A stretch of DNA of 64,000 nt from Fidelibacterota bacterium. Lineage in GTDB: Bacteria; Fidelibacterota; UBA2242. Location: positions 3,345 to 67,344 of the forward strand of contig JAGNGI010000004.1 of the NCBI GenBank assembly GCA_018002295.1, read 5' to 3'. The stretch's first letter is position 1; every line of letters begins with the position of its first letter. Both the position numbers and the translations under genes were made by a program. Positions 24,217-55,257 of this stretch are shown piece by piece. The notes under the pieces are model-generated. The model ran no database searches. It was given only the letters and a program-made list of their open reading frames with translations, and had not been told where the DNA came from.

Positions 24217-24245
24217 TTGACTTAAATATTTTAATACGCTATATT
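24217..24245 (+). promoter_or_regulatory. sigma70-type promoter candidate for the GH13 gene (TTGACT-17-TATATT), preceded by an A10 tract
   Basis: TTGACT at 24217-24222, 17-nt spacer, TATATT at 24240-24245. An A10 run lies immediately upstream. Confidence 0.45.
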
Positions 24246-24276: not shown

Positions 24277-26124
24277 TTGAAAAACGCGACAGAAAATCAA
24301 GTCCCAAAAGGCAAATTTTCACTGGCAAGAGGATTGCTTGTCATCGGAATAGTAGCTGGGATTTGTTTGAGTGACAACCTCTCAGATAGAACATACTGGA
24401 CTTACGATGCTATCTGGTATCAAATATTCCCAGAGCGCTTTAGGAACGGTGATCCGACTAATGATCCAACGATTGAAACGCTAAAAGGCACCTGGCCATA
24501 TGAACCTCAAACGCAATGGAGCATTATGCCCTGGACTGCTGATTGGTATAAACTCCAGCCTTGGGAAAAATCCAACCAACGCGACTTTTACTATAATGCT
24601 CAATTGCGTCGTTATGGCGGTGATATCGAGGGAATAATTGATAAACTCGATTATCTTGTAGATTTAGGAATCAATGCAATTTATTTGAATCCAGTCTTTG
24701 AATCGGCTTCGTCGCATAAATACGGTGCTACAATGTATCATCATATTGATAATAATTTTGGGCCTGATCCGGCTGGTGATATAGCAATTTGGCAAACTGA
24801 AAATCCTAATGATCCTTTGACCTGGCAGTGGACTTCCGCTGATAAATTATTTCTGAAACTAATACAGGAGGTGCATACCCGTCAAATGAAAATAATCATT
24901 GATGGAGTATTCAATCATGTTGGCATACCTTTCTGGGCTTTTCAGGACGTCAAAAAAAATGGAGAAGCCAGTCCATACGCCGATTGGTTTGTGATAGAGT
25001 TCTTTGATGATCCGAGTACAATCGAAGATGAATTTGAATATCAAGGCTGGAATGGAATTCCGGATTTACCGGAGATCTGGGAAGACGAGAATGGTCCTGT
25101 ACAAGGATTTCGGGCGCATATAAAAGCCGTGGTTGAAAGATGGGGTGATCCAAATGGTGATGGCGATCCGTCGGACGGGATTGACGGCTGGCGATTGGAT
25201 GTGGCTGAGAAGGTCAGTAAAAATTTCTGGCGTGATTTTCGCAAATGGGTGAAAAGCATAAATCCCGAGGCATATTTAACTGGTGAAATATGGTGGGAAG
25301 ATTTTATGAATAATAAGATGTTCGATGCTTCACCATGGTTGCAGGGCGATATTTTTGACGGCGTGATGAATTATCGTTTCGGCGATGCTATGCTTAAAGC
25401 CTTTGTTGACAGAGAAATGAGGATAAAACCATCCGAGCTTGATCAATTATTAGGCGATATTAGAGAAAAATATCCGCTACCCGCTCAATATCAACTGCAA
25501 AATATAATTGGTAGTCACGATAATGAGCGTTTTGCCAGTATGTTATTAAATCCAGACCGCTGGATCGATCACGGTGGCAATCTGGTTTACAATAAAGATT
25601 TTAAGATAAACCGTCCTTCGGATGAGCTCCGACAAATCCAAAAGACAATTCTTGTTTTTCAATTTACTTATATCGGAGCACCTTATATTTATTATGGCGA
25701 TGAAGTGGGGATGTGGGGAGCAGATGATCCCGACAATCGAAAACCAATGGTTTGGGATGATATGCAATATGAACCGGAGACTACTCATCCATTTGGAATA
25801 AAGAGACCTGTAGATTCCGTTAAAGTTGATACAGATTTGTTCAATTTCTATAAATCTGTAATAAATCTCAGAAAAAATCATGAATGTCTAAGAAGAGGCA
25901 GGTATAAAACAATATTGACTGACGACAAAAGGGGGATTTTCGGATTTGAGCGTAAATATGATACTGAGACCATCTACATCTTTGCAAATTTGAATGATAA
26001 ACCTATCAAAATGAGCGAGATAAATTTTGATGTCACAAAATGCGAAAAGATTTTTACAGTTAATACCGATACAAATTATCTCGGGTCGAAAGGAATAGTA
26101 GTTTATAAAATTATTAAAGGGTAA
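24277..26124 (+). CDS. GH13 alpha-amylase-family enzyme (neopullulanase/cyclomaltodextrinase-like), exported
   Basis: GH13 regions I (IIDGVFNHVG), II (GWRLDVAEKV), III (GEIWWED) and IV (IGSHDNERF). N-terminal hydrophobic segment. TTG start. Confidence 0.8.
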   Translation: MKNATENQVPKGKFSLARGLLVIGIVAGICLSDNLSDRTYWTYDAIWYQIFPERFRNGDPTNDPTIETLKGTWPYEPQTQWSIMPWTADWYKLQPWEKSNQRDFYYNAQLRRYGGDIEGIIDKLDYLVDLGINAIYLNPVFESASSHKYGATMYHHIDNNFGPDPAGDIAIWQTENPNDPLTWQWTSADKLFLKLIQEVHTRQMKIIIDGVFNHVGIPFWAFQDVKKNGEASPYADWFVIEFFDDPSTIEDEFEYQGWNGIPDLPEIWEDENGPVQGFRAHIKAVVERWGDPNGDGDPSDGIDGWRLDVAEKVSKNFWRDFRKWVKSINPEAYLTGEIWWEDFMNNKMFDASPWLQGDIFDGVMNYRFGDAMLKAFVDREMRIKPSELDQLLGDIREKYPLPAQYQLQNIIGSHDNERFASMLLNPDRWIDHGGNLVYNKDFKINRPSDELRQIQKTILVFQFTYIGAPYIYYGDEVGMWGADDPDNRKPMVWDDMQYEPETTHPFGIKRPVDSVKVDTDLFNFYKSVINLRKNHECLRRGRYKTILTDDKRGIFGFERKYDTETIYIFANLNDKPIKMSEINFDVTKCEKIFTVNTDTNYLGSKGIVVYKIIKG

Positions 26125-26169
26125 TTGTCTTTGATAAAATCAATAAATCAAATTCAATTGAGGTAAAGG

Positions 26170-28968
26170 ATGAGATATAAGGATTGGTTAATAACAGTTG
26201 TTCTGATTTTAACTGCAGGGTATTTATTCGGAGGTAATACTGGTAAAATTACTGGTATAGTTACTGATAGTCAAACTGGTCTTCCTTTAATAGGTTGTAA
26301 CATAATGCTTGAGGATACTTATTTGGGTGCGGCATCCGATACAGATGGACGATATATGATTCTTAATGTACCGCCCGGCGAATATCGTTTAAAAGCTCAA
26401 ATGATTGGTTACCAGCCAAAAGTGATAACCGGCGTGATTGTATCAGCTGATTTGACAACTACTATCAATATTGGGCTTTCGACCCAGGTTTTAGAGGGTG
26501 AAGAAGTGATAGTTACTGCAGAGCGCAAAATGGTTGTCAAAGATATGACTGCGACTGCTTCCCATGTTAAAGCTGAAGAACTAGCCGCTTTACCAGTGAC
26601 TGAAGTTAGCGACGTTCTTGAAATGCAAGCCGGATATGTAGATGGGAGTTTACGGGGAGGCAGAAGAGGTGAAGTTGCCTATTTAATAGATGGTATTCCG
26701 GTAACCGATTCTTATGATCGTAGTGCGGTCATTGATGTCAATAAAAATATGATTCAGGAATTGCAGGTAATTTCCGGAGCGTTTAATGCAGAATACGGAA
26801 AGGTAATGTCAGGCATCGTCAATATCACTACCAAGCAAGGTAGCAACAAGCACGGTGCGTCGCTAGAAATGTATATTGGAGATTATCTTAGTACACATGA
26901 CGAAATCTTTGATAATATTGGGTCAATAAATCCTCTAAATATCCATAATGCTGAAATCAGTTTTTTTGGACCATTAATAAAGGATAAGTTATTTTACAAT
27001 TTCAATACGCGCTATATTTACTTTGGGGGTTGGCTTCAAGGTCAGAACCGTTATAAACCAACTAGTATATTAGCTGTGTCTCCCGATGGTTCGCATTTCT
27101 TGCTGGACTCAACTACTATGTTAGGAGATCAGAAGTGGGTCAATATGAACTGGAACGAAAAGTTGTATTTTCAAGGACAATTAATCTACCGGCTTTCTAA
27201 CCGAAGTAGTATTTATTATAATCTTTTTTACGATAATAAAGATTACCAGGATTATGATCGTATGTTCAAATATAATCCGGCGGGAATGTTAAAGAAAAAC
27301 CTAACCGCTGAAACGCATTTACTGAAGTTTCAGCGACAATTAAGTTCTAAAACCTTTTTCACTCTGGCTGGCTCATATTATTATCGTAAATATACCGGCA
27401 GATTGTCTGCCGATACCAGTTACAACGATAGCACCACCTATGTCCACCCGGCTTACCTTTATCAATATCCTTATCAATTTTATTTTGGTGGGACTCAAAA
27501 TGATCACGAATATCGTGACAGTAGAACATACCTTGCGAAATGGGATATGACTTCCCAGATAAATGGACAACATCAGATAAAGGGCGGTTTGGAATTTCAA
27601 CAGCATGATATTTCATTAAGAACATTTAATATTCGTCCAGCGACTGGTGAGACCTATATAGACTTTGCATCCGGATTGAATATACCATCTACCTGGAATC
27701 CATATATTCATCCGACGATTTTGGATAATAGTACGATTTATGCTAGCTATTACCGTCATAAACCTTATGAATTTGCCGGATATTTACAAGATAAAATGGA
27801 GTTTAGCGAGTTAATCATTAATATCGGGGTAAGATTTGATTATTTTGAACCGGATGGTGTTGTGCTTGCCGATCCCAGTGACCCTGAAATCTATGAGCCA
27901 ATTAAACCTGAAAATCGTTATCATGATCTTAACGGAAATGGTGTTCAGGATCCTGGCGAACCAGAAGTCACTTTGGAGGAACGGAGACAGTATTGGTATA
28001 AAAAAGCCAGCCCAAAATATCAATTTAGCCCTAGAATCGGATTGTCATTTCCAATTAGTGATCGCGGGGTATTTCATTTTTCTTATGGTCATTTTTTTCA
28101 AATTCCCAACTTTAATTATTTATATATGAATCCTGATTTTGATCTTGGTTCTGGAACCGGTAATCAAGGAGTAATTGGAAATGCGGATTTGAAGCCAGAA
28201 CAAACTATCGTGGGAGAAATCGGAGTTCAGCAACAATTAAGTGATAATTTTTCAGTTGACATTACTGCCTATCTGAAAGACATAAGAGACTTGACCGGAA
28301 CGAGAGCAGAAGAGATTATAGTTTATGGCGGAGCGGCCTCTTATAGCCGATTAGTTAATAGTGATTTTGGTGTAGTAAAAGGTATTACTATAGCACTTAA
28401 TCAGCAGAATCCGAGCGGTTTATATACCAGTTTTGATTATACGCTCCAAATTGCTAAAGGCACTGCATCAGATCCGGAAGCATACCGTAATGCGATTGCT
28501 GGTGGAAACCAACCAGAAATTCAACTTAATCCCTTAGATTGGGATCAACGCCATACAATTAATGGAACAGTGGGATATAATCACAAAAATTATGGAATAA
28601 ATTTTATCGGTCGCTGGGGAAGTGGTTTGCCCTATACTCCGCAATCAAGTGAAGATATTACATCACTTTTAACTAATGCTGGTACTAAACCACCTACCCT
28701 AACAATTGATGCTAAATCTTACTACCGATTCACCTTATCAGGAAGATATTCGGTTGAATTATTTATCAGAATTCAGAATTTATTTGATAAATTGAATGAA
28801 GTTAATGTTTATGACGAGACCGGTCGAGCTGGTTTTACGACCGATGAAGCCCGAGTAGAAGCTTTAAATATTAAAACTCCGATTAATTCGGTTCACGAGT
28901 GGTTTACCGACCCAACGTATTATTCCGAACCACGTCGAGTCGAAATAGGAATGAGGATAAGTATATGA
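26170..28968 (+). CDS. TonB-dependent outer-membrane receptor with N-terminal carboxypeptidase-regulatory-like domain (SusC-like architecture)
   Basis: Signal peptide, CarbopepD_reg-like N-terminus (ITGIVTDSQTGLPLIGCNIML…GEYRLKAQMIGY), plug region (VTAERK…LAALPVTEVSDVLEMQAGY…LRGGRRGEVAYLIDGIPV) and a long barrel. No SusD-like gene follows. Confidence 0.65.
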   Translation: MRYKDWLITVVLILTAGYLFGGNTGKITGIVTDSQTGLPLIGCNIMLEDTYLGAASDTDGRYMILNVPPGEYRLKAQMIGYQPKVITGVIVSADLTTTINIGLSTQVLEGEEVIVTAERKMVVKDMTATASHVKAEELAALPVTEVSDVLEMQAGYVDGSLRGGRRGEVAYLIDGIPVTDSYDRSAVIDVNKNMIQELQVISGAFNAEYGKVMSGIVNITTKQGSNKHGASLEMYIGDYLSTHDEIFDNIGSINPLNIHNAEISFFGPLIKDKLFYNFNTRYIYFGGWLQGQNRYKPTSILAVSPDGSHFLLDSTTMLGDQKWVNMNWNEKLYFQGQLIYRLSNRSSIYYNLFYDNKDYQDYDRMFKYNPAGMLKKNLTAETHLLKFQRQLSSKTFFTLAGSYYYRKYTGRLSADTSYNDSTTYVHPAYLYQYPYQFYFGGTQNDHEYRDSRTYLAKWDMTSQINGQHQIKGGLEFQQHDISLRTFNIRPATGETYIDFASGLNIPSTWNPYIHPTILDNSTIYASYYRHKPYEFAGYLQDKMEFSELIINIGVRFDYFEPDGVVLADPSDPEIYEPIKPENRYHDLNGNGVQDPGEPEVTLEERRQYWYKKASPKYQFSPRIGLSFPISDRGVFHFSYGHFFQIPNFNYLYMNPDFDLGSGTGNQGVIGNADLKPEQTIVGEIGVQQQLSDNFSVDITAYLKDIRDLTGTRAEEIIVYGGAASYSRLVNSDFGVVKGITIALNQQNPSGLYTSFDYTLQIAKGTASDPEAYRNAIAGGNQPEIQLNPLDWDQRHTINGTVGYNHKNYGINFIGRWGSGLPYTPQSSEDITSLLTNAGTKPPTLTIDAKSYYRFTLSGRYSVELFIRIQNLFDKLNEVNVYDETGRAGFTTDEARVEALNIKTPINSVHEWFTDPTYYSEPRRVEIGMRISI

Positions 28969-31900
28969 AACATTCGATAAAATATCTTACTATTGAGATT
29001 CTCTCAATTTTGTTAATGACGATTACAACGTCACAAATAATTTTAGCTAATCAAAGTGGGAAAGCTTACCGGCGTAGTTCCATCCATAACGGTAATCTGG
29101 TTCGGACAGTTTTCGGTAACTGGGGAGTCATTGGCCAACCAAGGGAAAAAGGTCCGCGTGGGGCATGGCTTTTTGATACCAATGGATATATCGGCGATGT
29201 CAGTCCAATGGTAGGCGCTGAAGTAAATTATCATTCTGAAGAACTTGACTCGACAATAACATTCCATAGCGTTGTAGTTTGTCCGGTAGATCGCCCGGCA
29301 ACTGCTCGCGAAGAATCGCCTACCGGTGATCAGTGGACTTTTGAGCCGGTTTCCGGTTATTTTAATGAGTCTTCTCAAGGAATAGCTATGAGTACTGATC
29401 AAAATTCGTGGCCTCCTTATTGGCCTGATAAAATGGATGATCCTGAGGATCCGGGTTGGCCAGAGCAATGGAATGGATTTTTTGGAAAAGGGGTAACCAA
29501 TGCTGATCAAGAAAGTTATTTTATTATGGATGATAATAATGATGTTGAATTCAACAGTGGTCACAATCTAAAGGGTGTCTATTTCAAACCTGATAATAGA
29601 GATGCGAATCGCAACGGACTCGGCTTGGAAGTGAAGGTTCGGGGAATGCAATGGGCTCAGTTTCTGGCACAGGATGTAATATTTTGGCTTTATGAAATTA
29701 CCAATACAAGCACTACGGATTATGATAAAGTGGTCTTCGGAATGATAGCTGGAACTTACAACGGAGTGACTGGTACAGATGATTCACCTCAGGAATATGA
29801 TGACGATTATTCTTTCTTTGATGTTGAACGGGATTTGACTTATACTGGTGATTACCCTAATAATAATAGTCGTAATCCTAAATGGCAGGGACCGGTTGGA
29901 CTGGTCGGATATGCTTTTCTGGAAAGTCCCGGTAATCCTTATGACGGCATTGATAATGACGGTGATAATAAACCTGAAGAACATCCTGGTAAAAATTTAA
30001 TTTTTACGGCACCCCTATTTACCGAATCAGATTTCGACTCAGTTGTATATAATAAAGGAGACCAGATAGTATTAATTGATAAAGATTATAAGCGTACTTT
30101 TCACACAATTACCAGTGATACAGAAACGGTTGTAACCAAAGGGATGCAAATCACAATCATTGCGGGACAAACAAAATTAGTAGAAGGAAATGTCCTGGCA
30201 AATGGTTCAATTAATCCAAATGTTTATGACGGCATTGATAATGATCTGGACGGATTAATTGACGAGAATTACCTGTTGCATTATAGACAACGCCGGGTGG
30301 ATCAAAACGGAGTAGTTTTATTTGACACCTTGAATCCGGTAGCCTATAAAGATTATCGAAGGGGATTGGGAATTGGTGATCCTTTGATTGACGAAGCCCG
30401 CAATGATGGACTTGATAATGACGGTGATTGGAATCCTGAAACAGATGATGTCGGTAATGATGGTAAACCAGGTACAAATGATTATGGAGAGAATGACGGC
30501 AAACCTACAGCAAATGAACCGAATTTCGATAAAACCGATGTTGATGAATCGGACCAAATCGGTTTAACTAGTTTTAATTATTTCGTTCCATCTAATGCTT
30601 ATCCAATGGCGGATGATGAATTGCTCTGGGAATGGTTAAAACCGGGATATTTTGATGTGCCGTCGAGTATTCAAAATGGCAAACCAGTTGCCGGGGAAGA
30701 TGGCGATTTCATTTATGGCTCGGGGTATTTTCCACTACGAGCCGGTGATACCCAGCGTTTTTCATTGGCTTTAGTATATGGTTATGATTTGACCGATCTA
30801 CTCAAGAATCGGGAAACGGTTCAGGATATTTACAACAGTGATTATCGTTTTCCCCAACCGCCGGATAAGCCGACGGTAACGGCGGTTGCCGGTGACGGCA
30901 AGGTAACCCTTTACTGGGATAGAAAGGCTGAAGAAAGTATCGATCCAGTAACTAAGGAGAAAGATTTCGAAGGTTATAAAATCTATAAAGCTACTGATCC
31001 TGATTTCAATGATGTATTTGTTATTACCGATGCCAATGGTGTGCTGACTGGTTACAAGCCACTAGCTCAATTTGATAAGGTCAATGGAATCAAAGGAATT
31101 TTCGAGGCGAGTTCGGATTTGTATCAAAGTGCTGGCGGTTATTCTTACTATTTAGGCTCTGACAATGGTTTAGTGCATTCCTACGTTGATGAAGATGTTC
31201 AGAACGGACGAATCTACTATTATGCGGTAGTCGCCTATGATCACGGTGACGCCAGTAATGATATTTTTCCATCGGAAAATACCAAGTTTATTTCGGTGCA
31301 GTCAGATGGGACGGTAATTACCGATATAAACACCGTTCAAGTTAGACCAACTGCGAAAGTTGCCGGTTATGATGAACAAAATAGTGAATTAGCCCTGAAA
31401 CACCTGGAAGGTCCGGCAACCGGCGTTATTCAGTATAAAATTATTGATGAAACACTATTAAATGGGCATACCTATAAAGTGAATTTCACCGATACACGAA
31501 CCGACGGAATTGATAATGATGGCGATTGGAATTATTTAACTTGCGATGTTGGCTCTGATGGCAAACCAGGTACAAATGATTATGGAGAAGGGGATGGCAT
31601 ACCTACGAGCGGTGAGCCGAATTTTGAATGGAATGATGAAGATGAATTTGCTCAAATTACATCCACTTACTCTGTTTTAGATAAAACAGGCGTCGAAGAA
31701 TTTATCAATCTTGACACTTCTTATGTTTGGCTTACCTATCAAAATATTCAATATGACGATATTTTAATTGCCAGTGAGTCAGATCCGAATAACTATTTAT
31801 CATTAAGTAAATTCGAAATAGATACCTTACGAGGAAAAATTAAAATAAAAGCGGGTAGTAACCTAAAAAGTGGTAGTTATCGTATATTTTATAAGTATTA

Positions 31901-32876
31901 TCCTGTCTTTAAAAGTCCAAACATTCAGTATAGTCCTTATATGAAAGAAACAAAAGACTCCGATATTTTCGATGGCGTTGAGTTAGTGTTTAGTAATCCG
32001 TGGGATATTAAAATGATTAAATCTAAGTCGGGCTGGAATTCGACTGATAGAATTATTGATTTTACCTTTAGAATTGATCAGGCTTTATTGGAAGGCGATA
32101 CCATAGTTGGAGTACAATATCCCGGAATATATGAGCTGCGAGTCGGTGATAGTAGCGAAGTATTATATGAAACTCCCAAAGAATTCTTAAAGTCCATCTA
32201 TCCTAGTTTCTCAGATGTAATTATAAGAACCCTGGTAAAGAAGACTAATTTTTATCTATTTAATGTGTTGGATTCTGTAAAGATACCTTTTCTTTATAAT
32301 GGTGGAATAAAAAACAGTTATGGAATTTATGAAATAACGCCAGGTGGCTTGATTGAATCTTATATTCCTAAACCGGATAGTACTTATCAATATTCCTGGG
32401 TGATAAACTTTCCGCCTATTTCAGATAAAGTCACACCGCCCCGGTTCCTAAAAGGTGACATTCTCCATATTGAAACAGAAATCCCCTTCCGTAATGGTGA
32501 TATTTATGAATTCACTACTGAAATTCCTAATGTAGATGATGAAGTGGCTAAATCTAGCTTAGATGATATTCAGGTTGTCCCTAATCCTTATGTGGTTGCC
32601 AATACGATGGAATCGCCATTACCGCCTGCCATTACCAGTGGCCGAGGGGAAAGGCGGATTGAATTTCGCAAATTGCCTAACGATGCCAAAGTACATATCT
32701 TTACATCAGCCGGGGCGCATGTAATTACCCTAAATCACAACGGCAATATTCATAATGGTACTTTAGCCTGGAATGTTAAATCGAAAGAGAATCTCGATGT
32801 AGCATTTGGGGTTTATTACTATATCATAGAATCATCGGTCGGTAAAAAATCCGGCAAATTAGCAGTAATAAAATAG
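28965..32876 (+). CDS. 1303-aa secreted protein with thrombospondin-type-3-like Ca-binding Asp repeats and T9SS C-terminal sorting domain
   Basis: ATG overlaps the receptor stop (ATGA). Signal peptide present. Repeats DGIDNDGDNKPEEHPG, DGIDNDLDGLIDEN and DNDGDWN…VGNDGKPGTNDYGENDGKPT occur twice. Fn3-like module. C-terminus VVPNPYV…KVHIFTSAGAHVITL…GVYYYII…KSGKLAVIK fits a T9SS type-A CTD. Confidence 0.6.
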   Translation: MKHSIKYLTIEILSILLMTITTSQIILANQSGKAYRRSSIHNGNLVRTVFGNWGVIGQPREKGPRGAWLFDTNGYIGDVSPMVGAEVNYHSEELDSTITFHSVVVCPVDRPATAREESPTGDQWTFEPVSGYFNESSQGIAMSTDQNSWPPYWPDKMDDPEDPGWPEQWNGFFGKGVTNADQESYFIMDDNNDVEFNSGHNLKGVYFKPDNRDANRNGLGLEVKVRGMQWAQFLAQDVIFWLYEITNTSTTDYDKVVFGMIAGTYNGVTGTDDSPQEYDDDYSFFDVERDLTYTGDYPNNNSRNPKWQGPVGLVGYAFLESPGNPYDGIDNDGDNKPEEHPGKNLIFTAPLFTESDFDSVVYNKGDQIVLIDKDYKRTFHTITSDTETVVTKGMQITIIAGQTKLVEGNVLANGSINPNVYDGIDNDLDGLIDENYLLHYRQRRVDQNGVVLFDTLNPVAYKDYRRGLGIGDPLIDEARNDGLDNDGDWNPETDDVGNDGKPGTNDYGENDGKPTANEPNFDKTDVDESDQIGLTSFNYFVPSNAYPMADDELLWEWLKPGYFDVPSSIQNGKPVAGEDGDFIYGSGYFPLRAGDTQRFSLALVYGYDLTDLLKNRETVQDIYNSDYRFPQPPDKPTVTAVAGDGKVTLYWDRKAEESIDPVTKEKDFEGYKIYKATDPDFNDVFVITDANGVLTGYKPLAQFDKVNGIKGIFEASSDLYQSAGGYSYYLGSDNGLVHSYVDEDVQNGRIYYYAVVAYDHGDASNDIFPSENTKFISVQSDGTVITDINTVQVRPTAKVAGYDEQNSELALKHLEGPATGVIQYKIIDETLLNGHTYKVNFTDTRTDGIDNDGDWNYLTCDVGSDGKPGTNDYGEGDGIPTSGEPNFEWNDEDEFAQITSTYSVLDKTGVEEFINLDTSYVWLTYQNIQYDDILIASESDPNNYLSLSKFEIDTLRGKIKIKAGSNLKSGSYRIFYKYYPVFKSPNIQYSPYMKETKDSDIFDGVELVFSNPWDIKMIKSKSGWNSTDRIIDFTFRIDQALLEGDTIVGVQYPGIYELRVGDSSEVLYETPKEFLKSIYPSFSDVIIRTLVKKTNFYLFNVLDSVKIPFLYNGGIKNSYGIYEITPGGLIESYIPKPDSTYQYSWVINFPPISDKVTPPRFLKGDILHIETEIPFRNGDIYEFTTEIPNVDDEVAKSSLDDIQVVPNPYVVANTMESPLPPAITSGRGERRIEFRKLPNDAKVHIFTSAGAHVITLNHNGNIHNGTLAWNVKSKENLDVAFGVYYYIIESSVGKKSGKLAVIK

Positions 32877-32886
32877 CGGTGAGAAC

Positions 32887-33900
32887 ATGAATAGAAAATT
32901 ACCTACTATAATTTCGACAGTACTGATTAGCACTATATTTTTAAATGCTCAGAATAAAGAAGGAACTGCCGCCGGTCAATTTTTGCAAATTCCAGTCGGT
33001 GGGAAGGCAATTGCAATGGGTGGCGCATTCACGGCTCTGGCCGATGATGCGAGTGCAATTTATTATAATCCGGGAGCAATTTCCCGAATTAGTAAAAATA
33101 AATTGTATGTTTCTCAAACTAATTGGTTAGTGGGAGGGAAGCATCAATTTATAGCGGCTCAGGTAATGGCAACCAGCAATGATATCATTGGAATTGGCGT
33201 TGATTACTTAGATTACGGTGAGCGAGAAAAAATAACTACGGTAGCGGAGCCAGATGGTACCGGTGAATATTGGGAAGCAAGTGATTTAGCTTTTAGCTTG
33301 GGCTATGCTCGCAACTTAACCGACCGCTTTTCAATCGGAGGCAGTGTCAAATTCATTCAACAAAATATCTGGCATGTCAGCGCAACGGGATTTGCCGCTG
33401 ATCTGGGATTATTATTTAAAACTCAATTCAACGGACTTCAGATTGGTGCCAGCATGCGGAATTTTGGTAGCGAGTTACAATTAACAGGACGCGATTTAAT
33501 TACTCAGGTTGACCTTGACGAAGAAGCCTCTGGCAATAACGAGACAATCGTCGCTTATCTTAAAACTGATAAATGGCCAATTCCTTTAACGTTTACTATA
33601 GGAGTCGCGATGCCGGTGATCAATAGTAATCAATTTGTTTTGACACTGGCAGGTGATGTCGTACGTCCTACGGATAATAGCCAGACGCTTAACTGTGGGG
33701 CTGAGGCAATAATAATGAAAATGATTAGTCTTCGTGCCGGTTATCAAGCTTTATTTCGCGAAAATAAACAGCAAGGATTGACCGCTGGTATTGGCTTGAA
33801 ATTGCCAATCCAATATGCCGATTTTTATTTTGATTATTCTTATCAAGAATTTGGATTTTTTGGGAATCTTTCAACTATGTCTATATCAATAGGTTTTTAA
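32887..33900 (+). CDS. PorV/PorQ-like (UPF0164-type) outer-membrane beta-barrel protein
   Basis: Signal peptide, then FLQIPVGGKAIAMGGAFTALADDASAIYYNPGAI, an N-terminal signature I recall for PorV/PorQ-family barrels. Alternating-residue beta-strand character; ends in F. Confidence 0.45.
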   Translation: MNRKLPTIISTVLISTIFLNAQNKEGTAAGQFLQIPVGGKAIAMGGAFTALADDASAIYYNPGAISRISKNKLYVSQTNWLVGGKHQFIAAQVMATSNDIIGIGVDYLDYGEREKITTVAEPDGTGEYWEASDLAFSLGYARNLTDRFSIGGSVKFIQQNIWHVSATGFAADLGLLFKTQFNGLQIGASMRNFGSELQLTGRDLITQVDLDEEASGNNETIVAYLKTDKWPIPLTFTIGVAMPVINSNQFVLTLAGDVVRPTDNSQTLNCGAEAIIMKMISLRAGYQALFRENKQQGLTAGIGLKLPIQYADFYFDYSYQEFGFFGNLSTMSISIGF

Positions 33901-33922
33901 CAACAAAAGAAAGGAGTAAGCT

Positions 33923-35974
33923 ATGAAAAAAGCTACTGTTTTGATGTTGATGTTGACTCTAATTGCTGTCTCGGGATTAGCCGATGTGACAGTTAATTAT
34001 ATTGTCAATACATCAACTCTGCAAGGGGTCACCGATTCGACCCATCAGGTCCAGATTTGTGGTGCGGAAGTCGGGCCAGAAGGTGTTGAAAAGTGGTACA
34101 ACCTTTTTCTGACCTGGGGTGATGAATCACCACTAGCCGCCAATATTGGAGGAGATTACTGGAAATTGACGATTGCTTATCCGGATTCGATGATTGGCTG
34201 GCGGATGGCTTATAAGGTTCGTTATAAGGCTAATGAGGATGATGCCTTTACGTGGGAGAATGTAACTGGTGGTGGCAACCGTATGTGGGTTTTACCGGCT
34301 ACTGACACGACTTTAGCGGTTGCTTATGTTAACAATGATTTCAATCCGCCCTTTGCGCCATCCGATTCTGTTGACATTTTAGTTCGGGTAAATATGGAGA
34401 ATTACGAAGACAGTTTCTCACTATTGTCGGTTGTTGGCCATTGGCCTTTCTGTGATCCAGCCTGGACACCTGGGGCACTGCCTTTGACTCAAGAAGGCAC
34501 CTCCGATTACTGGAGCAGAACGATCCGGATTCCACAGGCTGTGATGGATACCGTTGATCGAGTACAACCTCTCGGTGCAGAGCATCCCGGGGTACTAATG
34601 TATCGTTTTGCGATCGGTAATGATTGGAACAATTCAGAAAACTTGAATGGTAAATACTGGCCAGGTAATGAAAACCGGATCATTGCTCTGCATCCTGGCT
34701 TGGAAGATACGACCTTGGCTTGGAAATATTGGAATGACAATCCACCGGCCGGATTTATAGCGGAAGATACCGTTGATATTACTTTTACCGCCGATTTAAC
34801 TAATGCCATTGCCAATAAAGGTTTTGCAGTTGGCGATACCATTTTAGTCCGGATGGGTTATTTTAACAGTCTGTCTTCAACAATGGATGCTAATCTGCTT
34901 CGAATTTCCGGAACCTACCTATATTCGACCACTTTTACAGATGTTCCAGTAGTTCTTAACGAACCGCTTTATTATCAGTATTATCTTGTAAAAGATGCCG
35001 TAGAACAACGTGAAGTATATTTCAATTTTGATTATGAAGGCGAAGACGTTACGCGAGCAGAAAGACGTGCATACGTCATAACCGGCGATGCTGAAATCAA
35101 CGACATCGAGGATAGCGAAACCGATCCACGTCGCATGCCCAAATTCAGGAATAACCAGAAACTTAGTCAGGCGGTTACCGTAACTATTGAATGCGACCTG
35201 CGTCCGGCCTATTATCAAGTCTGGGCTGGTTCGACGCTTGACGATATTCAAGGCAACATTGACATTACCCCAGCGATGCTGGAAGCCAATCCAGATACTC
35301 TCGCTAAATTAGGTTTATGTATCAATGGCCCAATGTCCAACAATGGCGAAGGTACCTGGGCAACTTGGGGTGGAACGTTAGCCAGTGACGCTACTCGCAG
35401 AATGTATGACGATGGAACTAATGGTGACGAGACTGCTGGTGATACCATTTATACGATTGTATACAATTTTACCACTGAAAAAACCATCGGTCAGGAATTC
35501 AAATTCGGGATTGGCGGCGGAGATAATGAAAGCAGTTATGGTCTTAACCATATAGAAAATATTGATGACACGAATCCGACTTTTACACTGGAGGTTCAGT
35601 TTGGCTCGATCAATCCGAATTTCTATTCGGCTTGGGATTTTAATGCCAGAGCACCTAAGGTCGGAATCAAAAATCAAAATGCCACTATTGCCAAGGAATT
35701 CTCCCTCTCTCAGAATTTTCCAAATCCATTCAATCCAACTACAGAAATTCGTTTTACTATCTCGGAAAAAAGCGATGTTCATTTGACGATATACAACCTG
35801 CTTGGTAAGGTTGTCAATAAGGTTACTTATAATAACCTGGACATCGGCAATTACAGCTACGTCTGGAATAGTAAAGACCTAAACGGCAACAGTGTTGCCT
35901 CCGGTATTTATTTCTATGAACTACGGGCTGGTAGTAAATATCATGCTATCAAAAAGATGGTTTTGATGAAATAA
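33923..35974 (+). CDS. secreted protein with four tandem CBM20-like starch-binding-type modules and T9SS C-terminal sorting domain
   Basis: Signal peptide. Four ~110-aa repeats each ending in a CBM20-like W…WE…NR pattern (e.g. FTWENVTGGGNRMWVLP). C-terminus NFPNPFNPTTEIRFTI…LTIYNLLGKVV…SGIYFYELRAG…KKMVLMK is a T9SS type-A CTD. Confidence 0.55.
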   Translation: MKKATVLMLMLTLIAVSGLADVTVNYIVNTSTLQGVTDSTHQVQICGAEVGPEGVEKWYNLFLTWGDESPLAANIGGDYWKLTIAYPDSMIGWRMAYKVRYKANEDDAFTWENVTGGGNRMWVLPATDTTLAVAYVNNDFNPPFAPSDSVDILVRVNMENYEDSFSLLSVVGHWPFCDPAWTPGALPLTQEGTSDYWSRTIRIPQAVMDTVDRVQPLGAEHPGVLMYRFAIGNDWNNSENLNGKYWPGNENRIIALHPGLEDTTLAWKYWNDNPPAGFIAEDTVDITFTADLTNAIANKGFAVGDTILVRMGYFNSLSSTMDANLLRISGTYLYSTTFTDVPVVLNEPLYYQYYLVKDAVEQREVYFNFDYEGEDVTRAERRAYVITGDAEINDIEDSETDPRRMPKFRNNQKLSQAVTVTIECDLRPAYYQVWAGSTLDDIQGNIDITPAMLEANPDTLAKLGLCINGPMSNNGEGTWATWGGTLASDATRRMYDDGTNGDETAGDTIYTIVYNFTTEKTIGQEFKFGIGGGDNESSYGLNHIENIDDTNPTFTLEVQFGSINPNFYSAWDFNARAPKVGIKNQNATIAKEFSLSQNFPNPFNPTTEIRFTISEKSDVHLTIYNLLGKVVNKVTYNNLDIGNYSYVWNSKDLNGNSVASGIYFYELRAGSKYHAIKKMVLMK

Positions 35975-35983
35975 GTTGCTCTT

Positions 35984-36024
35984 AAGAGGAAGGACGGATT
36001 TTCCGTCCTTCCTCTTTTTCTTTG
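35984..36024 (+). terminator. strong intrinsic terminator
   Basis: AAGAGGAAGGACGG-atttt-CCGTCCTTCCTCTT, a perfect 14-bp stem, followed by TTTTCTTT. Sits right after the 33923..35974 gene. Confidence 0.75.
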
Positions 36025-37902: not shown

Positions 37903-38736
37903 ATGGATATTTTTCAGGATAATGTTCTTCATAAAATGATGCAACTGGGCTTTACTAATTATGAAGCCCGCACTTACCTCGGACTACTGAAATTGAGTCC
38001 TGCTACCGGTTATGAAATCAGTCAATTGGCTCACGTTCCTCGTTCCGTAGTTTACTCGGTATTAAAGCAGTTAGAATCGCGAGGTATCGTAATTTCGATT
38101 CATGATAAACCGCGCCGATATATCCCTTTGGCACCGGACGAGATGCTGAAGCGGATGGAGACCGATTATGCCAGTCGAGTATCGAACCTTAAAGACGATT
38201 TAGCCGAACTCAGTAATAAATCAGGCACCGAGGGATTCTGGAACTTACGTGGATACCAATCTTTAATGCAAACCTGTGAGACGTTAATCCGCGAAGCTCA
38301 TAAATCTATCTACATTTCCGGCTGGCAACGTGAGATTTCGCTCCTTAGAGAGCACTTACTAAATGCCTGTAAACGCAATGTTTTTGTCGTAATTTTTTCC
38401 TTTAATGAAATTAATCCGCCAATCGGAGAAACCTTGGCTTATGGCATTCCAGAAGAAAAACTGGAACATTATTGGGATCGGAAATTAATTTTGGTAACCG
38501 ATTCGAAAAATTTAATTATGGGACCAGCTAATCAGAAAGAAGATGAGCAAGCCATCTGGACTCAGAATAAAGCGGCACTAACAATTGCTACCAATTATAT
38601 TATTCTGGATATAACCCTTTTCGGTCAGCGAATGAATATGGATATTTCTAACATTATTGCTGGTATGTTGACTGACGAATTTGAAAAAGTTGATGATCTC
38701 ATTCAAGAAGCCATTGAAAAACACAAAAAGGCTTAA
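37903..38736 (+). CDS. TrmB-family sugar-responsive transcriptional regulator
   Basis: N-terminal HTH LGFTNYEARTYLGLLKLSPATGYEISQLAHVPRSVVYSVLKQLESRGIV matches the TrmB DNA-binding domain. The C-terminal domain is the length of a TrmB sugar-binding domain. Confidence 0.7.
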   Translation: MDIFQDNVLHKMMQLGFTNYEARTYLGLLKLSPATGYEISQLAHVPRSVVYSVLKQLESRGIVISIHDKPRRYIPLAPDEMLKRMETDYASRVSNLKDDLAELSNKSGTEGFWNLRGYQSLMQTCETLIREAHKSIYISGWQREISLLREHLLNACKRNVFVVIFSFNEINPPIGETLAYGIPEEKLEHYWDRKLILVTDSKNLIMGPANQKEDEQAIWTQNKAALTIATNYIILDITLFGQRMNMDISNIIAGMLTDEFEKVDDLIQEAIEKHKKA

Positions 38737-38759: not shown

Positions 38760-40580
38760 ATGACCAATATGCCTCGAGTGTTACCTTTAATTTTTGCATT
38801 ACTTATGATTTTAAATAATTGTGAAATAAACCAGAATTTGCAGAGTTTGAACGGCAAATGGTTGTTCAAGTACGATCGCAACGGCATCGGTGATACTCAA
38901 GGTTATTACCGCACCGAATATGATCGGAAAGACTGGAGCACTATAAATGTTCCAGCCTTCTGGGATGATCCGCATTATGACGGAATCGGTTGGTACGCGA
39001 CTGAATTTAAACTTAAAAAACCGCTGGGTAATAACCGACTGGCACTTGTTTTTGAGGCGGTTGACGATGACGCCGTCGTATATCTTAACGGCGAAAAAGT
39101 TGGTGAACATGCCGGTTACGGAATCCAATTTTACCTTGATATAACTCATCAAATCATACCGGGAACATCCAATTTATTAGTCGTGCGTATCAATGATACC
39201 GGTGGAGCGGGCGGGATTACCGGTAATGTCCTGTTGCAATATTATACCGATGAGACAGAACTTCTACAATCAGAATTTTCTCAAAAAGAAGCAAACCCAG
39301 TTCCCGATTGGGTAAAATCAGCTTGCCTTTATGAAGTGTTCGTCAGAGCCTATAGTCCGGAAGGTAACTTTCAAGCACTGACTGAGGATTTACCGCGACT
39401 CAAATTACTCGGAATAGATTGTATCTGGTTGATGCCGATTTTCCCAATCGGCGCTAAACACCGCAAAGGCTCAATGGGCAGTCCTTATTCAATCCGTGAC
39501 TTCAAGAGTATCAATCCGGATCTAGGGACAGAGTCGGATTTGAAAAACCTCGTTACCAGTGCCCATCAACCGGGAATAAAGGTTATTCTCGATATTGCTT
39601 GCAATCACAGCTCCTGGGATAATCTACTTATAGAAGAACACCCCAATTGGTACACTCAAGATGCGCAAGGTAAAATAATTGCCCCGAATGAGAATTGGAG
39701 TGACGTAGCCGATTTTAATTATAATCAAACCGGTTTGCGTGAATATATGTGGGAGGTATTAGAATATTGGGTCAAAGAGTTTGATATAGATGGATACCGG
39801 CTCGATGTCGCTGAACTGGTACCAGATGATTTCTGGAAAACAGCCGCACACCGCCTCCAAAAAATCAAACCGGATATTTTAATGCTGGCGGAAGGCGATC
39901 ATCCTCGTTTGTATCTTAATGGTTTTCATTTGACCTATGGTTGGAATACAAGGCGGGCTTTTTATCAGATTATTAAAAACAATTATCCGGCTGAATTTTT
40001 AGCTCAAACTCTGAGGAAAGAGTATTATCGTTACCCTAAGAATGCGCTCAAAATGCGTTTTACCGAAAATCATGATGAAGCGCGAACTATGGCTTTATTT
40101 TCACCTGAACAGACTATGGTCTTGACCTTCCTGATATTTACCTTGCCGGGCGTCCCGATGATTTATGCTGGACAGGAAATTGGCGTTAGCGAAAAGCCAT
40201 CTCTATTCGAGAAGGATGTTATCAACTGGCGTCAGTTTGATAAAAGTTTAAATGAATTAATCACGAAAATGAATGAACTGCGGCGCAACATTTCTGCTCT
40301 ATCATCGGACACATACCAGGTTATAAATACTTCCGACCCGGAGAGCATCTTCGCATTTTCTCGATATAATGCTCAAGAAGTTGTACTTATTGTTACCAAT
40401 TTGAAAAGTAAATCTCAGATGGCGACGATTGATTTGGCGCCGATTTCAGCGAAAATTCCCAATACTGAACCGGAATTATTGGTCGGAACTGGAGCATTTT
40501 TGCTGGAAAATAATACATTATATTTGCCGTGTTACGGATATGATTATTATTTATTCCGGTTTGAGACCAAAAATGATTAA
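38760..40580 (+). CDS. GH13 alpha-amylase-family enzyme with N-terminal GH2-N-like (sugar-binding jelly-roll) domain
   Basis: N-terminal ~170 aa follows the Glyco_hydro_2_N pattern (DWSTINVPAFWDD…GIGWYATEFKL…LVFEAVDDDAVVYLNGEKVGEHAG…LLVVRIND). Then GH13 regions I (VILDIACNHSS), II (GYRLDVAELV), III (MLAEG) and IV (FTENHDEAR). Confidence 0.75.
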   Translation: MTNMPRVLPLIFALLMILNNCEINQNLQSLNGKWLFKYDRNGIGDTQGYYRTEYDRKDWSTINVPAFWDDPHYDGIGWYATEFKLKKPLGNNRLALVFEAVDDDAVVYLNGEKVGEHAGYGIQFYLDITHQIIPGTSNLLVVRINDTGGAGGITGNVLLQYYTDETELLQSEFSQKEANPVPDWVKSACLYEVFVRAYSPEGNFQALTEDLPRLKLLGIDCIWLMPIFPIGAKHRKGSMGSPYSIRDFKSINPDLGTESDLKNLVTSAHQPGIKVILDIACNHSSWDNLLIEEHPNWYTQDAQGKIIAPNENWSDVADFNYNQTGLREYMWEVLEYWVKEFDIDGYRLDVAELVPDDFWKTAAHRLQKIKPDILMLAEGDHPRLYLNGFHLTYGWNTRRAFYQIIKNNYPAEFLAQTLRKEYYRYPKNALKMRFTENHDEARTMALFSPEQTMVLTFLIFTLPGVPMIYAGQEIGVSEKPSLFEKDVINWRQFDKSLNELITKMNELRRNISALSSDTYQVINTSDPESIFAFSRYNAQEVVLIVTNLKSKSQMATIDLAPISAKIPNTEPELLVGTGAFLLENNTLYLPCYGYDYYLFRFETKND

Positions 40581-49900: not shown

Positions 49901-51028
49901 ATGGACAAAAAGTTATTGATTGCCATTACCGCTCTAACCAGCATTTTGACGGTTAATTGTGCGAAAAAGGAGCAGGGTAGCCAAGCTTCGGTAGAAATCT
50001 TCGGGACATTGTCAAATGGCACCGAAATAAAAAAATATACGATTTCCAATAGTAAGGGATTGACAGCCGAAATTATCAATTACGGAGCCAGAGTAGTATC
50101 ATTGAAAGCACCTGATCGTACCGGCAAAATTGAAGACATTATCTTCGGTTTTGATGATTTGGCTTCTTATGAGCGCGATAATTCCTATCAAGGCGCTATC
50201 GTTGGGCGCTACGGTAACCGCATTCGGGATGGTAAGTTTAGTTTAGAGGGAAAGACGTATCAGCTTGATATTAATGATGGTAAGAATCATCTACACGGTG
50301 GAAAAGACGGATTTTATAGACAGGTTTGGGAATGTCGCGAGGCTGATTCCAGATCAATTCAGCTATGTTACATCAGTCCGGATGGGGAAGGCGGATATCC
50401 GGGACAAGTTGAAATAACTGTTATTTATACAATTACGGATGATAATGGACTCAAGATCGAATATAGTGCCAAAACCGACAAGACGACGATTTTGAATCCA
50501 ACCAGTCATTGCTATTTCAATTTGAGTGGATTTCCGGAAAAAAGTATCTTAGATCACGAACTAATGATAAATGCCGACTATTTTACGCCGGTGGATGCCG
50601 GTTTAATTCCAACCGGTGAAATTCGACTTGTTGCAGGTACGCCGATGGATTTCCGAGTTGCAAAAGCGGTTGGCAAAGACATTGAAGCCGATGATGAACA
50701 AATTTTATATGGCAACGGCTACGATCATAACTGGGTTCTGAACGATTATAACGGGCAGGTTCGACTTGCGGCGACTTTGTACGAAAAAGAAACTGGCCGA
50801 TTGATGGAAGTTTTAACCGACCAACCGGGCTTGCAATTTTATTCTGGAAATTTCCTGGATGGTTCAATGACCGGCAAGGGAGGGGTAAAGTATAATCACC
50901 GTACCGCTCTTTGTCTGGAAGCTCAGGCTTTTCCGGATTCGCCCAATAAGCCTAATTTTCCGTCGGTGGTTTTAAGACCCGGTGAAGAATATAAGCAGAC
51001 GACAATCTATCGTTTTTCGACAAAATAG
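49901..51028 (+). CDS. galM: aldose 1-epimerase (galactose mutarotase), lipoprotein
   Basis: Lipoprotein signal (…LTVNC). HGG…, CYFNL and C-terminal NHRTALCLEAQAFPDSPNKPNFPSVVLRPGEEY mutarotase signature. Confidence 0.8.
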   Translation: MDKKLLIAITALTSILTVNCAKKEQGSQASVEIFGTLSNGTEIKKYTISNSKGLTAEIINYGARVVSLKAPDRTGKIEDIIFGFDDLASYERDNSYQGAIVGRYGNRIRDGKFSLEGKTYQLDINDGKNHLHGGKDGFYRQVWECREADSRSIQLCYISPDGEGGYPGQVEITVIYTITDDNGLKIEYSAKTDKTTILNPTSHCYFNLSGFPEKSILDHELMINADYFTPVDAGLIPTGEIRLVAGTPMDFRVAKAVGKDIEADDEQILYGNGYDHNWVLNDYNGQVRLAATLYEKETGRLMEVLTDQPGLQFYSGNFLDGSMTGKGGVKYNHRTALCLEAQAFPDSPNKPNFPSVVLRPGEEYKQTTIYRFSTK

Positions 51029-51055
51029 TTCAACTTTTAACAAGGGGAAATAGCT

Positions 51056-52801: not shown

Positions 52802-52825
52802 TATTCAAGCAGTTAACATTATTTT

Positions 52826-55239: not shown

Positions 55240-55257
55240 TCAATAAAGGAATAAAAA

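Follow-up and report, generated by a model that had tools for sequence, protein, structure and literature searches.

The gene at 33923..35974 (+ strand) of the window, which is the whole 64,000-nucleotide stretch of Fidelibacterota DNA analysed here, probably encodes a non-catalytic alpha-glucan binder that is exported by type IX secretion (T9SS), stands last in a conserved cassette and is held at the cell surface for GH13 enzymes and a TonB-dependent receptor. By sequence criteria the predicted protein is non-enzymatic and built from modules of the starch-binding type.

Polysaccharide capture is poorly understood in the Marinimicrobia (SAR406/Fidelibacterota), KSB1, Calditrichota and Ignavibacteriota, abundant groups most of whose members are uncultured. 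To our knowledge, they possess neither SusD-type polysaccharide-utilisation loci (PULs) nor the classical SusD/E/F proteins of Bacteroides. The protein family and four-gene cassette described below provide a concrete, testable model of surface alpha-glucan capture in those phyla, in which the T9SS delivers a multivalent binder and a dedicated PorV/Q-like barrel stands beside a TonB-dependent receptor. Recognising the family would sharpen the prediction of PUL-like loci in metagenomes, and two of its modules (D3 and D4) could add new families of starch-binding modules, useful in enzyme engineering. Public databases name the family "T9SS type A sorting domain-containing protein" or "hypothetical", and literature searches brought up neither this family nor the cassette, nor any non-catalytic starch binder displayed through the T9SS. 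The CHU_1279 paper was checked as a possible T9SS precedent and is none.

Results

Export signals and overall architecture

Position and length (683 aa) of the open reading frame were confirmed from the translation, and a chance ORF was rejected because more than 200 species-level orthologues exist; the gene is real. The closest MAG is DAOTJS01 (L004). The following features were assigned:

33923..33982, + strand: Sec (SPase I type) signal peptide, residues 1-20 (MKKATVLMLMLTLIAVSGLA, cleaved before D), read from the translation
33983..34348, + strand: D1 (residues 21-142), divergent CBM20 starch-binding domain, from profile homology and putative site residues
34349..34750, + strand: D2 (residues 143-276), D1 paralogue of the CBM20/CBM48 clan with insertions, from hhalign and orthologue hits
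34751..35167, + strand: D3 (residues 277-415), eight-strand beta module without a sequence family
35168..35692, + strand: D4 (residues 416-590), beta core with a helical insertion, from invariant columns and NF041940
35693..35974, + strand: linker, type-A T9SS C-terminal sorting domain (CTD, residues ~599-683) and stop codon, from TIGR04183 and PF18962

The predicted structure is beta-rich and confident (pLDDT 87.6), with an N-terminal helix at residues 2-17. The N-terminus MKKATVLMLMLTLIAVSGLADV carries no Cys and hence no lipobox, so the protein is no lipoprotein. The C-terminal T9SS domain that had been proposed was borne out, as residues 599-680 score 35 bits against TIGR04183 (cut-off 23) and 34.9 bits against PF18962 (cut-off 27); the protein thus combines a Sec signal with a CTD above the curated thresholds, as expected of type-A cargo. 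It would leave the cytoplasm by the Sec pathway, cross the outer membrane through the T9SS by means of this CTD, and is probably displayed on the cell surface. Core T9SS machinery genes were not seen among the annotated ORFs of the window, where only a PorV/PorQ-family paralogue was met, and this counts against the reading. A Pfam and NCBIfam scan of the target itself returned nothing beyond the CTD and one short motif of the choice-of-anchor type.

Two related modules and two without detectable relation

The original prediction described four tandem repeats of ~110 aa. This layout was not retrieved: the modules measure ~122 (D1), 134 (D2), 139 (D3) and 175 aa (D4), and self-BLASTP detected no internal repeats. 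Relatedness was judged instead by hhalign profile-profile comparison of alignment slices, in which D1 and D2 proved homologous and paralogous (97.9 %, E 3e-13), the only such pair among the four, whereas D3 and D4 show no detectable relation to D1/D2 or to one another. As for the W..WE..G-NR ending attributed to every repeat, the string FTWENVTGGGNRMWVLP was located at residues 109-125, and the pattern is complete only in D1 (W111-E112...N119-R120) and recognisable in D2 (W235...E239...N251-R252), but degenerate in D3 (E380-R381-R382) and D4 (N542-H543).

D1 is a divergent CBM20 and D2 its paralogue

A profile-HMM scan against CBM families had been suggested as a check, and its outcome was divided. 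The target's own sequence yields no Pfam CBM match even at E <= 0.1, and the curated score of CBM_20 (PF00686) is reached neither by the whole protein at E<=0.1 nor by isolated D1 at E<=0.01; orthologues with 38-43 % identity, however, pass the gathering scores of Pfam CBM_20, AMPK1_CBM or CBM_48 in D1 and D2. For CBM_20 in the D1 region these are P0098, P0109, P0111, P0113 and P0116, and when D1 sequences were isolated, 5 out of 15 matched Pfam CBM_20. Profile-profile comparison agrees with the orthologues, since the D1 family profile matches verified CBM20 domains of glucoamylase and CGTase over 83 columns (hhalign: 96 %, E 4e-9). In this alignment W65, K98, W111-E112 and N119-R120, the putative equivalents of binding site 1, coincide with W543, K578, W590-E591 and N595-R596 of the Aspergillus niger glucoamylase. 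At all of these positions 78-90 of 90 homologues agree (W65 in 90, K98 in 89, W111 in 89, E112 in 90, N119 in 78 with Asp in the other 12), and the site-1 residues W65, K98, W111, E112 and N119 are all in place. Putative site-2 equivalents are Y79 and W80, the latter corresponding to W563 and kept in 89/90 homologues. Judged by homology and by the intact putative site 1, D1 is a genuine but divergent CBM20, as had been proposed.

The CBM20-like reading is also supported for D2, both as the paralogue of D1 and through its score as CBM_48 or CBM_20 in some orthologues: CBM_48 matches lie in D2 of P0107 and P0119, one of 15 isolated D2 sequences matched CBM_20, and D2 aligns weakly with the AMPK CBM48 (31.6 %, E 5e-4). 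Conserved residues are W181, R/K228, W235, E239, N251 and R252. Sequence-profile searches against PDB sequences with the whole family, D1, D2 and D3-D4 gave no significant CBM match, the best being the SEX4 CBM48 for D2 (E 0.16, non-significant).

Secondary Pfam matches in orthologues all fall into starch- or glycogen-binding families (CBM20, 48, 53, 26, X25 and AMPK CBM). The claim of a non-catalytic protein was upheld, with no catalytic domain found in the target. A hidden one was rejected as well, for it is absent from the target and from all eight longer family members scanned, six of which carry extra canonical CBM_20, CBM_48 or CBM53 modules.

D3 and D4: possible binding modules or a possible docking unit

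For D3 and D4 as a unit, structural similarity may point to the proposed CBM nature; no link to any CBM family was found in their sequences. In the predicted structure D3 packs rigidly on D4, and a pTM of 0.86 marks the two as a rigid pair, whose best structural neighbours are CBM20-type starch-binding domains and not generic Ig domains. At the sequence level, comparison of D3 and D4 with CBM20, CBM48, D1 and D2 remained non-significant in local and global hhalign, the register being suggestive only; when 15 diverse D3-D4 sequences were scanned with Pfam at E<=1, nothing but noise came back; and a word-indexed homologue search with D4 retrieved only fragments from the target's own family. D3 lacks Trp and shows a Tyr-rich face (Y334, Y351, Y353, Y354). 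D4 is the most conserved module of the protein with ~35 invariant residues. Its acidic loop DDGTxGDxxAGD represents the 'choice-of-anchor X' motif (residues 494-518; NF041940, 33.2 bits, cut-off 25), in keeping with the alternative C-terminal anchors of the homologues, which end in either a T9SS CTD or a type-I dockerin. Found in 142 representative clusters (E<=1e-10), D4 almost always lies just before the C-terminal anchor and co-occurs with canonical CBM_20/48/53, never with catalytic domains. In a register-consistent but non-significant global alignment of D4 with D1, CBM20 site-1 positions are taken up by the invariant W482, K527 and N542-H543. D4 may be a remodelled CBM20-type fold.

Alternatively, labour could be divided, with D1 and D2 alone binding glucan and D3-D4 forming, instead of a third and fourth CBM, a docking or stalk module that fastens the target, perhaps with the aid of Ca2+, to another product of the cassette (1300-aa protein, PorV/Q-like barrel or receptor). 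We regard this as rather unlikely, albeit the strongest competitor. The majority of the target's invariant residues lie in D4, many of them polar or Gly (D425, R427, D496, D502, D507, D534, N535, N542, H543, N546), a pattern typical of an interface or metal site. The rigid pairing (pTM 0.86), the position of D4 next to the anchor, the co-occurrence of the partners in 40/40 loci, the missing Trp in D3 and the missing CBM sequence signal in both modules point the same way. These are opposed by the structural neighbours, which are starch-binding and not generic Ig domains, by the site-1 register of W482, K527 and N542-H543 in the non-significant D4/D1 alignment, and by the variants that end in a dockerin in place of the T9SS tail and yet keep D4, which speaks against a function bound to partners of the T9SS.

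A conserved cassette in an alpha-glucan locus

As originally reported, the target lies between a PorV-like gene and an SSS transporter in a GH13 cluster; three GH13 genes were counted there. The neighbourhood comprises:

24277..26124, + strand: GH13, cyclomaltodextrinase/maltodextrin-glucosidase-like, first gene of the unit (PF00128, 187.9 bits; NCBIfam hits)
26170..28968, + strand: TonB-dependent receptor with N-terminal carboxypeptidase-regulatory-like domain and plug (Pfam; 40/40 synteny)
28965..32876, + strand: conserved ~1300-aa protein (translation; 40/40 synteny)
32887..33900, + strand: PorV/PorQ-family outer-membrane beta-barrel (NF033709, 188.5 bits, cut-off 90)
35984..36016, + strand: intrinsic-terminator-like hairpin, 15-bp perfect stem followed by a T-run, 10 nt after the target stop codon
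36049-37881, + strand: SSS transporter, downstream alpha-glucan gene
37903-38736, + strand: TrmB-type sugar regulator, downstream alpha-glucan gene
38760-40580, + strand: GH13 with GH2_N-like N-terminal domain, downstream alpha-glucan gene
40429-43506, + strand: GH13 with its own T9SS tail, downstream alpha-glucan gene

The cassette runs from the TonB-dependent receptor over the 1300-aa protein and the PorV/PorQ-family barrel to the target as last gene, a context that had escaped the original prediction. The three genes that precede the target recur in 40/40 related loci whose sequence reaches far enough upstream, and in each the barrel gene lies upstream of the target homologue at a distance of <=3.2 kb; only 22 nt separate it from the target in the window. 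The cassette is spread over Neomarinimicrobiota/Fidelibacterota, KSB1, Ignavibacteriota and Calditrichota. Its carriers include the complete genome OY781066.1 (locus L015) and a MAG of Caldithrix sp. (L075); the cultured relative Caldithrix abyssi grows on starch (PMC5317091).

Against TIGR04056 the receptor scores 71.8 bits (cut-off 368), through its N-terminus alone, and no SusD gene adjoins it; on these sequence grounds it is no bona fide SusC. The ORF of the 1300-aa protein opens at 28899 (GTG) with a likely start at the ATG at 28965, and its product displays a signal peptide and acidic repeats of the DNDGD type; its C-terminal tail bears a weak resemblance to those of T9SS cargo (CHU_C 20 bits, short of the cut-off). 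Its homologues form at least 2400 clusters, all 'hypothetical' and without Pfam. PDB sequence relatives were found neither for this protein nor for the barrel, which may be the shuttle or anchor dedicated to the T9SS cargo of the cassette.

The hairpin behind the target marks the end of the cassette transcription unit: it is the strongest terminator-like site between 23.9 and 43.8 kb and folds with a Delta-G of -26.3 kcal/mol (z = -6.8), a value equalled by 0/200 shuffles. A promoter-like site at 24217-24245 near the first GH13 is given low weight, as this phylum may not follow the sigma-70 consensus. GH13, receptor, 1300-aa protein, barrel and target would be co-transcribed in this order.

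A strong GH13 (>=200 bits) occurs within +-10 kb in 27/40 related loci and GDE_C in one further locus. That the ligand is no alpha-glucan, the CBM20-like fold having been re-purposed for another polymer or a protein beside GH13 genes that are there by coincidence, appears very improbable. Such a reading could draw on the target's position below Pfam detection, on the many ligands bound by CBM-fold beta-sandwiches and on the 13/40 loci devoid of a strong GH13 within +-10 kb, yet it would have to accommodate an almost invariant Trp/Lys/Glu/Asn constellation of CBM20 site 1, secondary Pfam matches confined to starch- and glycogen-binding families, and annotated enzyme neighbours that are all active on alpha-glucans (GH13 or GDE_C).

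Discussion

The original observation was partly confirmed, in that the description as T9SS cargo, multivalent and CBM20-like, from an alpha-glucan locus stands; its interpretation is partly supported, with glucan binding a prediction from sequence. In the preferred reading, the distal N-terminal D1 would act as a functional-looking CBM20 and D2 as its diverged copy, while the membrane-proximal rigid unit D3-D4 would supply one or more additional folds that resemble starch-binding domains. The protein, most likely retained at the surface, would capture chains of starch, glycogen or maltodextrin for the GH13 enzymes located there and for the TonB-dependent receptor, cooperating with the latter and with the PorV/Q-like barrel; this would be the role of SusE/SusF in Bacteroides, with a T9SS tail replacing the lipid anchor.

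A good many type-A CTD cargos end up in the medium and are not retained, which counts against surface retention, and in Flavobacteria many type-A CTD proteins are soluble once secreted; F. johnsoniae ChiA, for example, is reportedly PUL-encoded and T9SS-secreted. A protein freed into the medium by CTD cleavage, or an adhesin to particles rich in starch or glycogen, was considered, neither of which would feed the receptor. Multivalent CBMs would suit adhesion to granules, and the dockerin-ended variants recall adherence proteins of amylosomes. The strict co-location and apparent co-transcription with receptor and PorV/Q-family barrel in 40/40 loci speak against both, as does the presumable cost of a freely diffusing binder in dilute aquatic habitats, and we hold them to be distinctly unlikely.

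More tentatively, the cassette may represent a distinct, SusD-independent polysaccharide-utilisation machine of FCB phyla beyond the classical PULs of Bacteroidota, in which surface glycan binders are not lipoproteins but arrive through the T9SS, a dedicated PorV/Q paralogue tethering them next to the receptor. If so, D3 and D4 would found one or two new CBM families.

Comparison with known systems

With the CBM20 domains of Aspergillus glucoamylase, CGTase (domain E), STBD1, laforin and GDE5, D1 shares homology at profile level and the site-1 residues. It differs by a ~15-residue insertion after strand 2, and the target as a whole by falling below the Pfam threshold, by modules not attached to an enzyme and by D3 and D4, which cannot be classified by sequence.

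PorZ-PorQ of P. gingivalis and SprB-SprF of F. johnsoniae each pair a T9SS cargo with a dedicated outer-membrane barrel. The target resembles them in that the gene of a T9SS-tailed protein invariably adjoins a PorV/PorQ-family barrel gene (NF033709). However, those pairs serve an attachment complex or gliding motility and not nutrient capture, whereas in the present cassette two predicted cargos flank one putative barrel partner beside a TonB-dependent receptor.

Sas6 and Sas20 of the Ruminococcus bromii amylosome, with CBM26 and CBM74, belong to a Gram-positive cohesin-dockerin system. Like the target by prediction, they are non-catalytic multi-CBM starch binders displayed by a modular C-terminal anchor, and some members of the target family likewise end in a dockerin instead of a T9SS tail; the modules of the target are, in contrast, of the CBM20 type, its organism is diderm and its gene belongs to a TonB-dependent receptor cassette.

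In Bacteroides thetaiotaomicron, SusE and SusF are non-catalytic proteins of tandem starch-binding beta-sandwich modules that hold alpha-glucan at the cell surface. The suggestion of a functional analogue is plausible in the light of this comparison: both are non-catalytic proteins of tandem modules, predicted beta-sandwiches in the target, both have genes accompanied by those of GH13 enzymes and of an outer-membrane TonB-dependent transporter, and they would share the presumed role of holding alpha-glucan at the surface. Membership in the SusE/SusF family was rejected. The target has no lipobox, no SusE or SusF/SusE Pfam match was obtained in it at E<=0.1 or in its orthologues, and a SusC/SusD pair is absent beside it, its neighbours and partners being the 1300-aa protein and the PorV/Q-family barrel; the likeness would be functional only, every tested defining feature being absent. 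The anchor would be a C-terminal T9SS domain and not a lipid, and the orientation would therefore be reversed relative to SusE/SusF, with the C-terminus proximal to the membrane.

Results

The open reading frame at 33923..35974 (+) encodes 683 aa, exactly as originally predicted, and was analyzed as the target. Its N-terminus, MKKATVLMLMLTLIAVSGLA/DV, reads as a Sec/SPase-I type signal peptide lacking a lipobox Cys, and the string FTWENVTGGGNRMWVLP, quoted originally for repeat 1, lies at residues 109-125. The postulated T9SS tail was recovered above curated thresholds as a type-A sorting domain at the C-terminus (PF18962, 34.9 bits vs 27; TIGR04183, 35 bits vs 23), and the neighbours were those expected, a PorV/PorQ-family barrel upstream (NF033709, 188.5 bits vs 90) and an SSS transporter downstream. 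Three GH13 genes and a TrmB-type regulator make up the rest of the locus.

Features of the target locus and adjoining DNA (positions in the window)
28899-32876, likely start 28965 (+): secreted protein of ~1300 aa, signal peptide, acidic DNDGD repeats
32887-33900 (+): PorV/PorQ-family barrel paralogue between two T9SS-tailed proteins, synteny invariant
33923-35974 (+): target, 683 aa
35984-36016: terminator-like hairpin, 15-bp perfect stem followed by a T-run, beginning 10 nt past the target stop codon
37903-38736: TrmB-family sugar-sensing regulator inside a bacterial alpha-glucan locus
38760-40580: GH13 enzyme whose N-terminal domain is of the GH2 sugar-binding type (galactose-binding-like; PF02837, 53 bits)
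40429-43506: GH13 enzyme, 1025 aa, TreZ/GlgB-like core at residues ~340-840, own T9SS type-A tail
43982-46269: IS200-like transposase fragment and rve-type integrase, immediately past the alpha-glucan locus
46721-49687: CotH-kinase and lamin-tail-domain protein, 988 aa, T9SS tail
49862-56745: arabinose catabolism genes

Conserved gene cassette

Target homologues were present in at least 202 species-level genomes, mainly of Candidatus Neomarinimicrobiota/Fidelibacterota, and further in KSB1, Ignavibacteriota, Calditrichota, one Cloacimonetes-labelled genome and some Bacteroidota-labelled MAGs; the closest (92 % identity) belonged to a Neomarinimicrobiota MAG. Forty related loci had 9 kb or more of sequence upstream, and in every one of them the target homologue was preceded by a TonB-dependent receptor, a ~1300-aa protein and a PorV/PorQ-family barrel in the same order and orientation, and these four genes are referred to as the cassette. 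A GH13 of at least 200 bits lay within ±10 kb at 27 of the 40, and a GDE_C-type debranching enzyme at one further locus.

The receptor carries a carboxypeptidase-regulatory-like N-domain and scored below the cut-off for a bona fide SusC (TIGR04056, 71.8 bits vs 368); no SusD was found at the target locus. The ~1300-aa protein has a weakly T9SS-like tail (CHU_C, 20 bits, below cut-off) and matched neither a Pfam or NCBIfam family nor a PDB sequence, while its family comprises at least 2400 homologous clusters, every one labelled "hypothetical", and keeps a higher identity between phyla (45-63 %) than the target does (35-50 %). The barrel scored below the equivalog cut-offs of PorV and PorQ alike, and may therefore represent a distinct subfamily.

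The hairpin behind the target is the strongest terminator-like site of the 20-kb locus (delta-G -26.3 kcal/mol, z -6.8) and divides the cassette from the SSS-TrmB-GH13-GH13 genes. Since the genes from 24277 to 35974 are also closely spaced on one strand, the target most likely closes a transcription unit of the form GH13-receptor-1300aa-barrel-target.

Several side observations concern these loci. The TrmB family is best known from archaea, and several related loci also have such a regulator close to the cassette. For an amylase-family enzyme, the GH2-type N-domain of the GH13 at 38760-40580 is an unusual partner. In the GH13 at 40429-43506 the ~330 N-terminal residues have no assigned domain, and the listed TTG start overlaps the preceding gene by ~150 nt, so that the true start is probably farther downstream. 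In a complete "Gemmatimonadota"-labelled genome (CP070758.1; locus L084, 5796-8978) the cassette receptor is split into two ORFs, possibly a frameshift or pseudogene, and one cassette contig (locus L076) labelled Synechococcus sp. UW140 is probably a binning contaminant.

Modules of the target

A 90-sequence alignment of the target family was cut into D1 (21-142), D2 (143-276), D3 (277-415), D4 (416-590) and the C-terminal sorting domain (CTD), and the slices were compared by hhalign. D1 and D2 were the sole homologous pair (97.9 %, E 3e-13), with D3 and D4 giving short matches in the first strand only, and self-BLASTP detected no internal repeats in the target. The four repeats of ~110 aa originally proposed were therefore too tidy in detail: the repeats are unequal, and sequence evidence can demonstrate no more than D1 and D2.

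Pfam found no CBM family in the target's own sequence; full-length orthologues (38-43 % identity), however, exceeded the gathering score with CBM_20 or AMPK1_CBM over D1 and CBM_48 over D2. When D1 was taken in isolation from 15 diverse members, five of the sequences matched CBM_20 (best E 1.5e-6) and others AMPK1_CBM, CBM26, X25 or CBM53, all starch- or glycogen-binding families; one of 15 isolated D2 sequences matched CBM_20. The identity of the reference sequences was confirmed by Pfam (A. niger glucoamylase SBD, CBM_20, 125 bits; CGTase domain E, CBM_20, 90 bits; AMPK beta1, AMPK1_CBM, 117 bits). Against the two CBM20 references the D1 family profile aligned over 83 columns (96 %, E 4e-9), placing W65, W80, Y97-K98, W111-E112 and N119-R120 on glucoamylase W543, W563, Y577-K578, W590-E591 and N595-R596, the residues that form binding site 1 and contribute to site 2. 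Conservation of these D1 residues was nearly complete (W65, E112 and R120 90/90; W80, K98 and W111 89/90; N119 78/90, the other 12 being Asp). D2 retains W181 (90/90), W235 (81/90), E239 (86/90), N251 (80/90) and R252 (84/90) as well as R/K228, and leans weakly to CBM48 (31.6 %, E 5e-4). D1 is almost certainly a CBM20 homologue, and the protein as a whole is predicted with good confidence to bind alpha-glucans.

The AlphaFold2 model of the full-length target, built with the family alignment, was confident (pLDDT 87.6). Foldseek on the full chain returned generic multi-Ig proteins only (TM ~0.1) and was set aside. Other fold matches were to CBM41, CBM26 and CBM25, and those to T9SS CTDs and FlgD are explained by the tail. 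Modelled alone, D3-D4 reached pLDDT 91.7, and its pTM of 0.86 indicates that the pair would form a rigid two-module unit.

Judged by sequence, this unit is an orphan: Pfam gave no recurring family on D3-D4 of 15 diverse members (E<=1), and a PDB sequence search no match. D4 is the most conserved part of the target, with ~35 invariant positions, and contains the NCBIfam "choice-of-anchor X" motif (33.2 bits vs 25). A forced, non-significant global alignment of D4 on D1 superposes the invariant pairs W482/W65, G506-D507/G77-D78, K527/K98 and N542-H543/N119-R120, a lead that D4 may be a CBM20-type module that was remodelled and gained a helical insertion. Exhaustive phmmer placed D4 in 142 representative clusters (E<=1e-10), nearly always immediately N-terminal of a C-terminal anchor. 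Of eight longer D4-containing proteins scanned, six had an extra canonical CBM_20, CBM_48 or CBM53 and none a catalytic domain.

Eight homologues on short metagenomic contigs (P0125, P0126, P0137, P0141, P0148, P0150, P0153, P0315) bear a type-I dockerin in place of or beside the T9SS tail, and this anchor swapping is consistent with the "choice-of-anchor X" motif. Enlarged architectures of 850-1425 aa (homologues P0281, P0282, P0283, P0048, P0016, P0052, P0114) include, in some cases each, two D4 copies, extra canonical CBM_20/CBM_48/CBM53 or a lamin-tail insert (PF00932).

Discussion

Except for the four equal repeats, the original prediction largely stands, namely that the alpha-glucan locus encodes a CBM20-type T9SS cargo that is non-catalytic and multivalent. 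The protein would be exported by Sec, recognized by the T9SS via its type-A CTD and displayed on the cell surface, D1 outermost and the C-terminus next to the cell, where D1 (and D2) would bind alpha-1,4-glucan helices via the conserved Trp pair. Rigid D3-D4 could add one or two binding sites or be a conserved element that serves for docking or as a stalk. Both T9SS-tailed proteins of the cassette might be shuttled by the adjacent PorV/PorQ paralogue, or tethered by it next to the receptor. Cleavage of the bound glucan would fall to surface GH13 enzymes, among them the T9SS-tailed one at 40429-43506, and uptake of the oligosaccharides to the receptor. Surface retention of the target, combined with a joint action with the receptor, is slightly favoured.

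In its proposed role the target would work like SusE/SusF, as had been suggested, but it is no member of that family: a lipobox and SusE/SusF domains are lacking, and so is a SusC/SusD pair. Another resemblance is to Sas6/Sas20, non-catalytic proteins for starch adherence in the Ruminococcus bromii amylosome, a likeness strengthened by the dockerin-ended variants. The arrangement of cargo and barrel recalls PorZ-PorQ and SprB-SprF, here in a setting of nutrient acquisition. No description of the target family or the cassette was found in the literature searched; the nearest retrieved precedent for a PUL combined with T9SS concerns a secreted chitinase, F. johnsoniae ChiA (PMC5127042). Caldithrix abyssi, of a cassette-carrying phylum, grows on starch (PMC5317091) and is a possible experimental system. 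The target is a predicted surface starch-binding protein of known type with a different anchor, and more novel than the protein itself are the invariant, unannotated four-gene cassette and the orphan D3-D4 unit.
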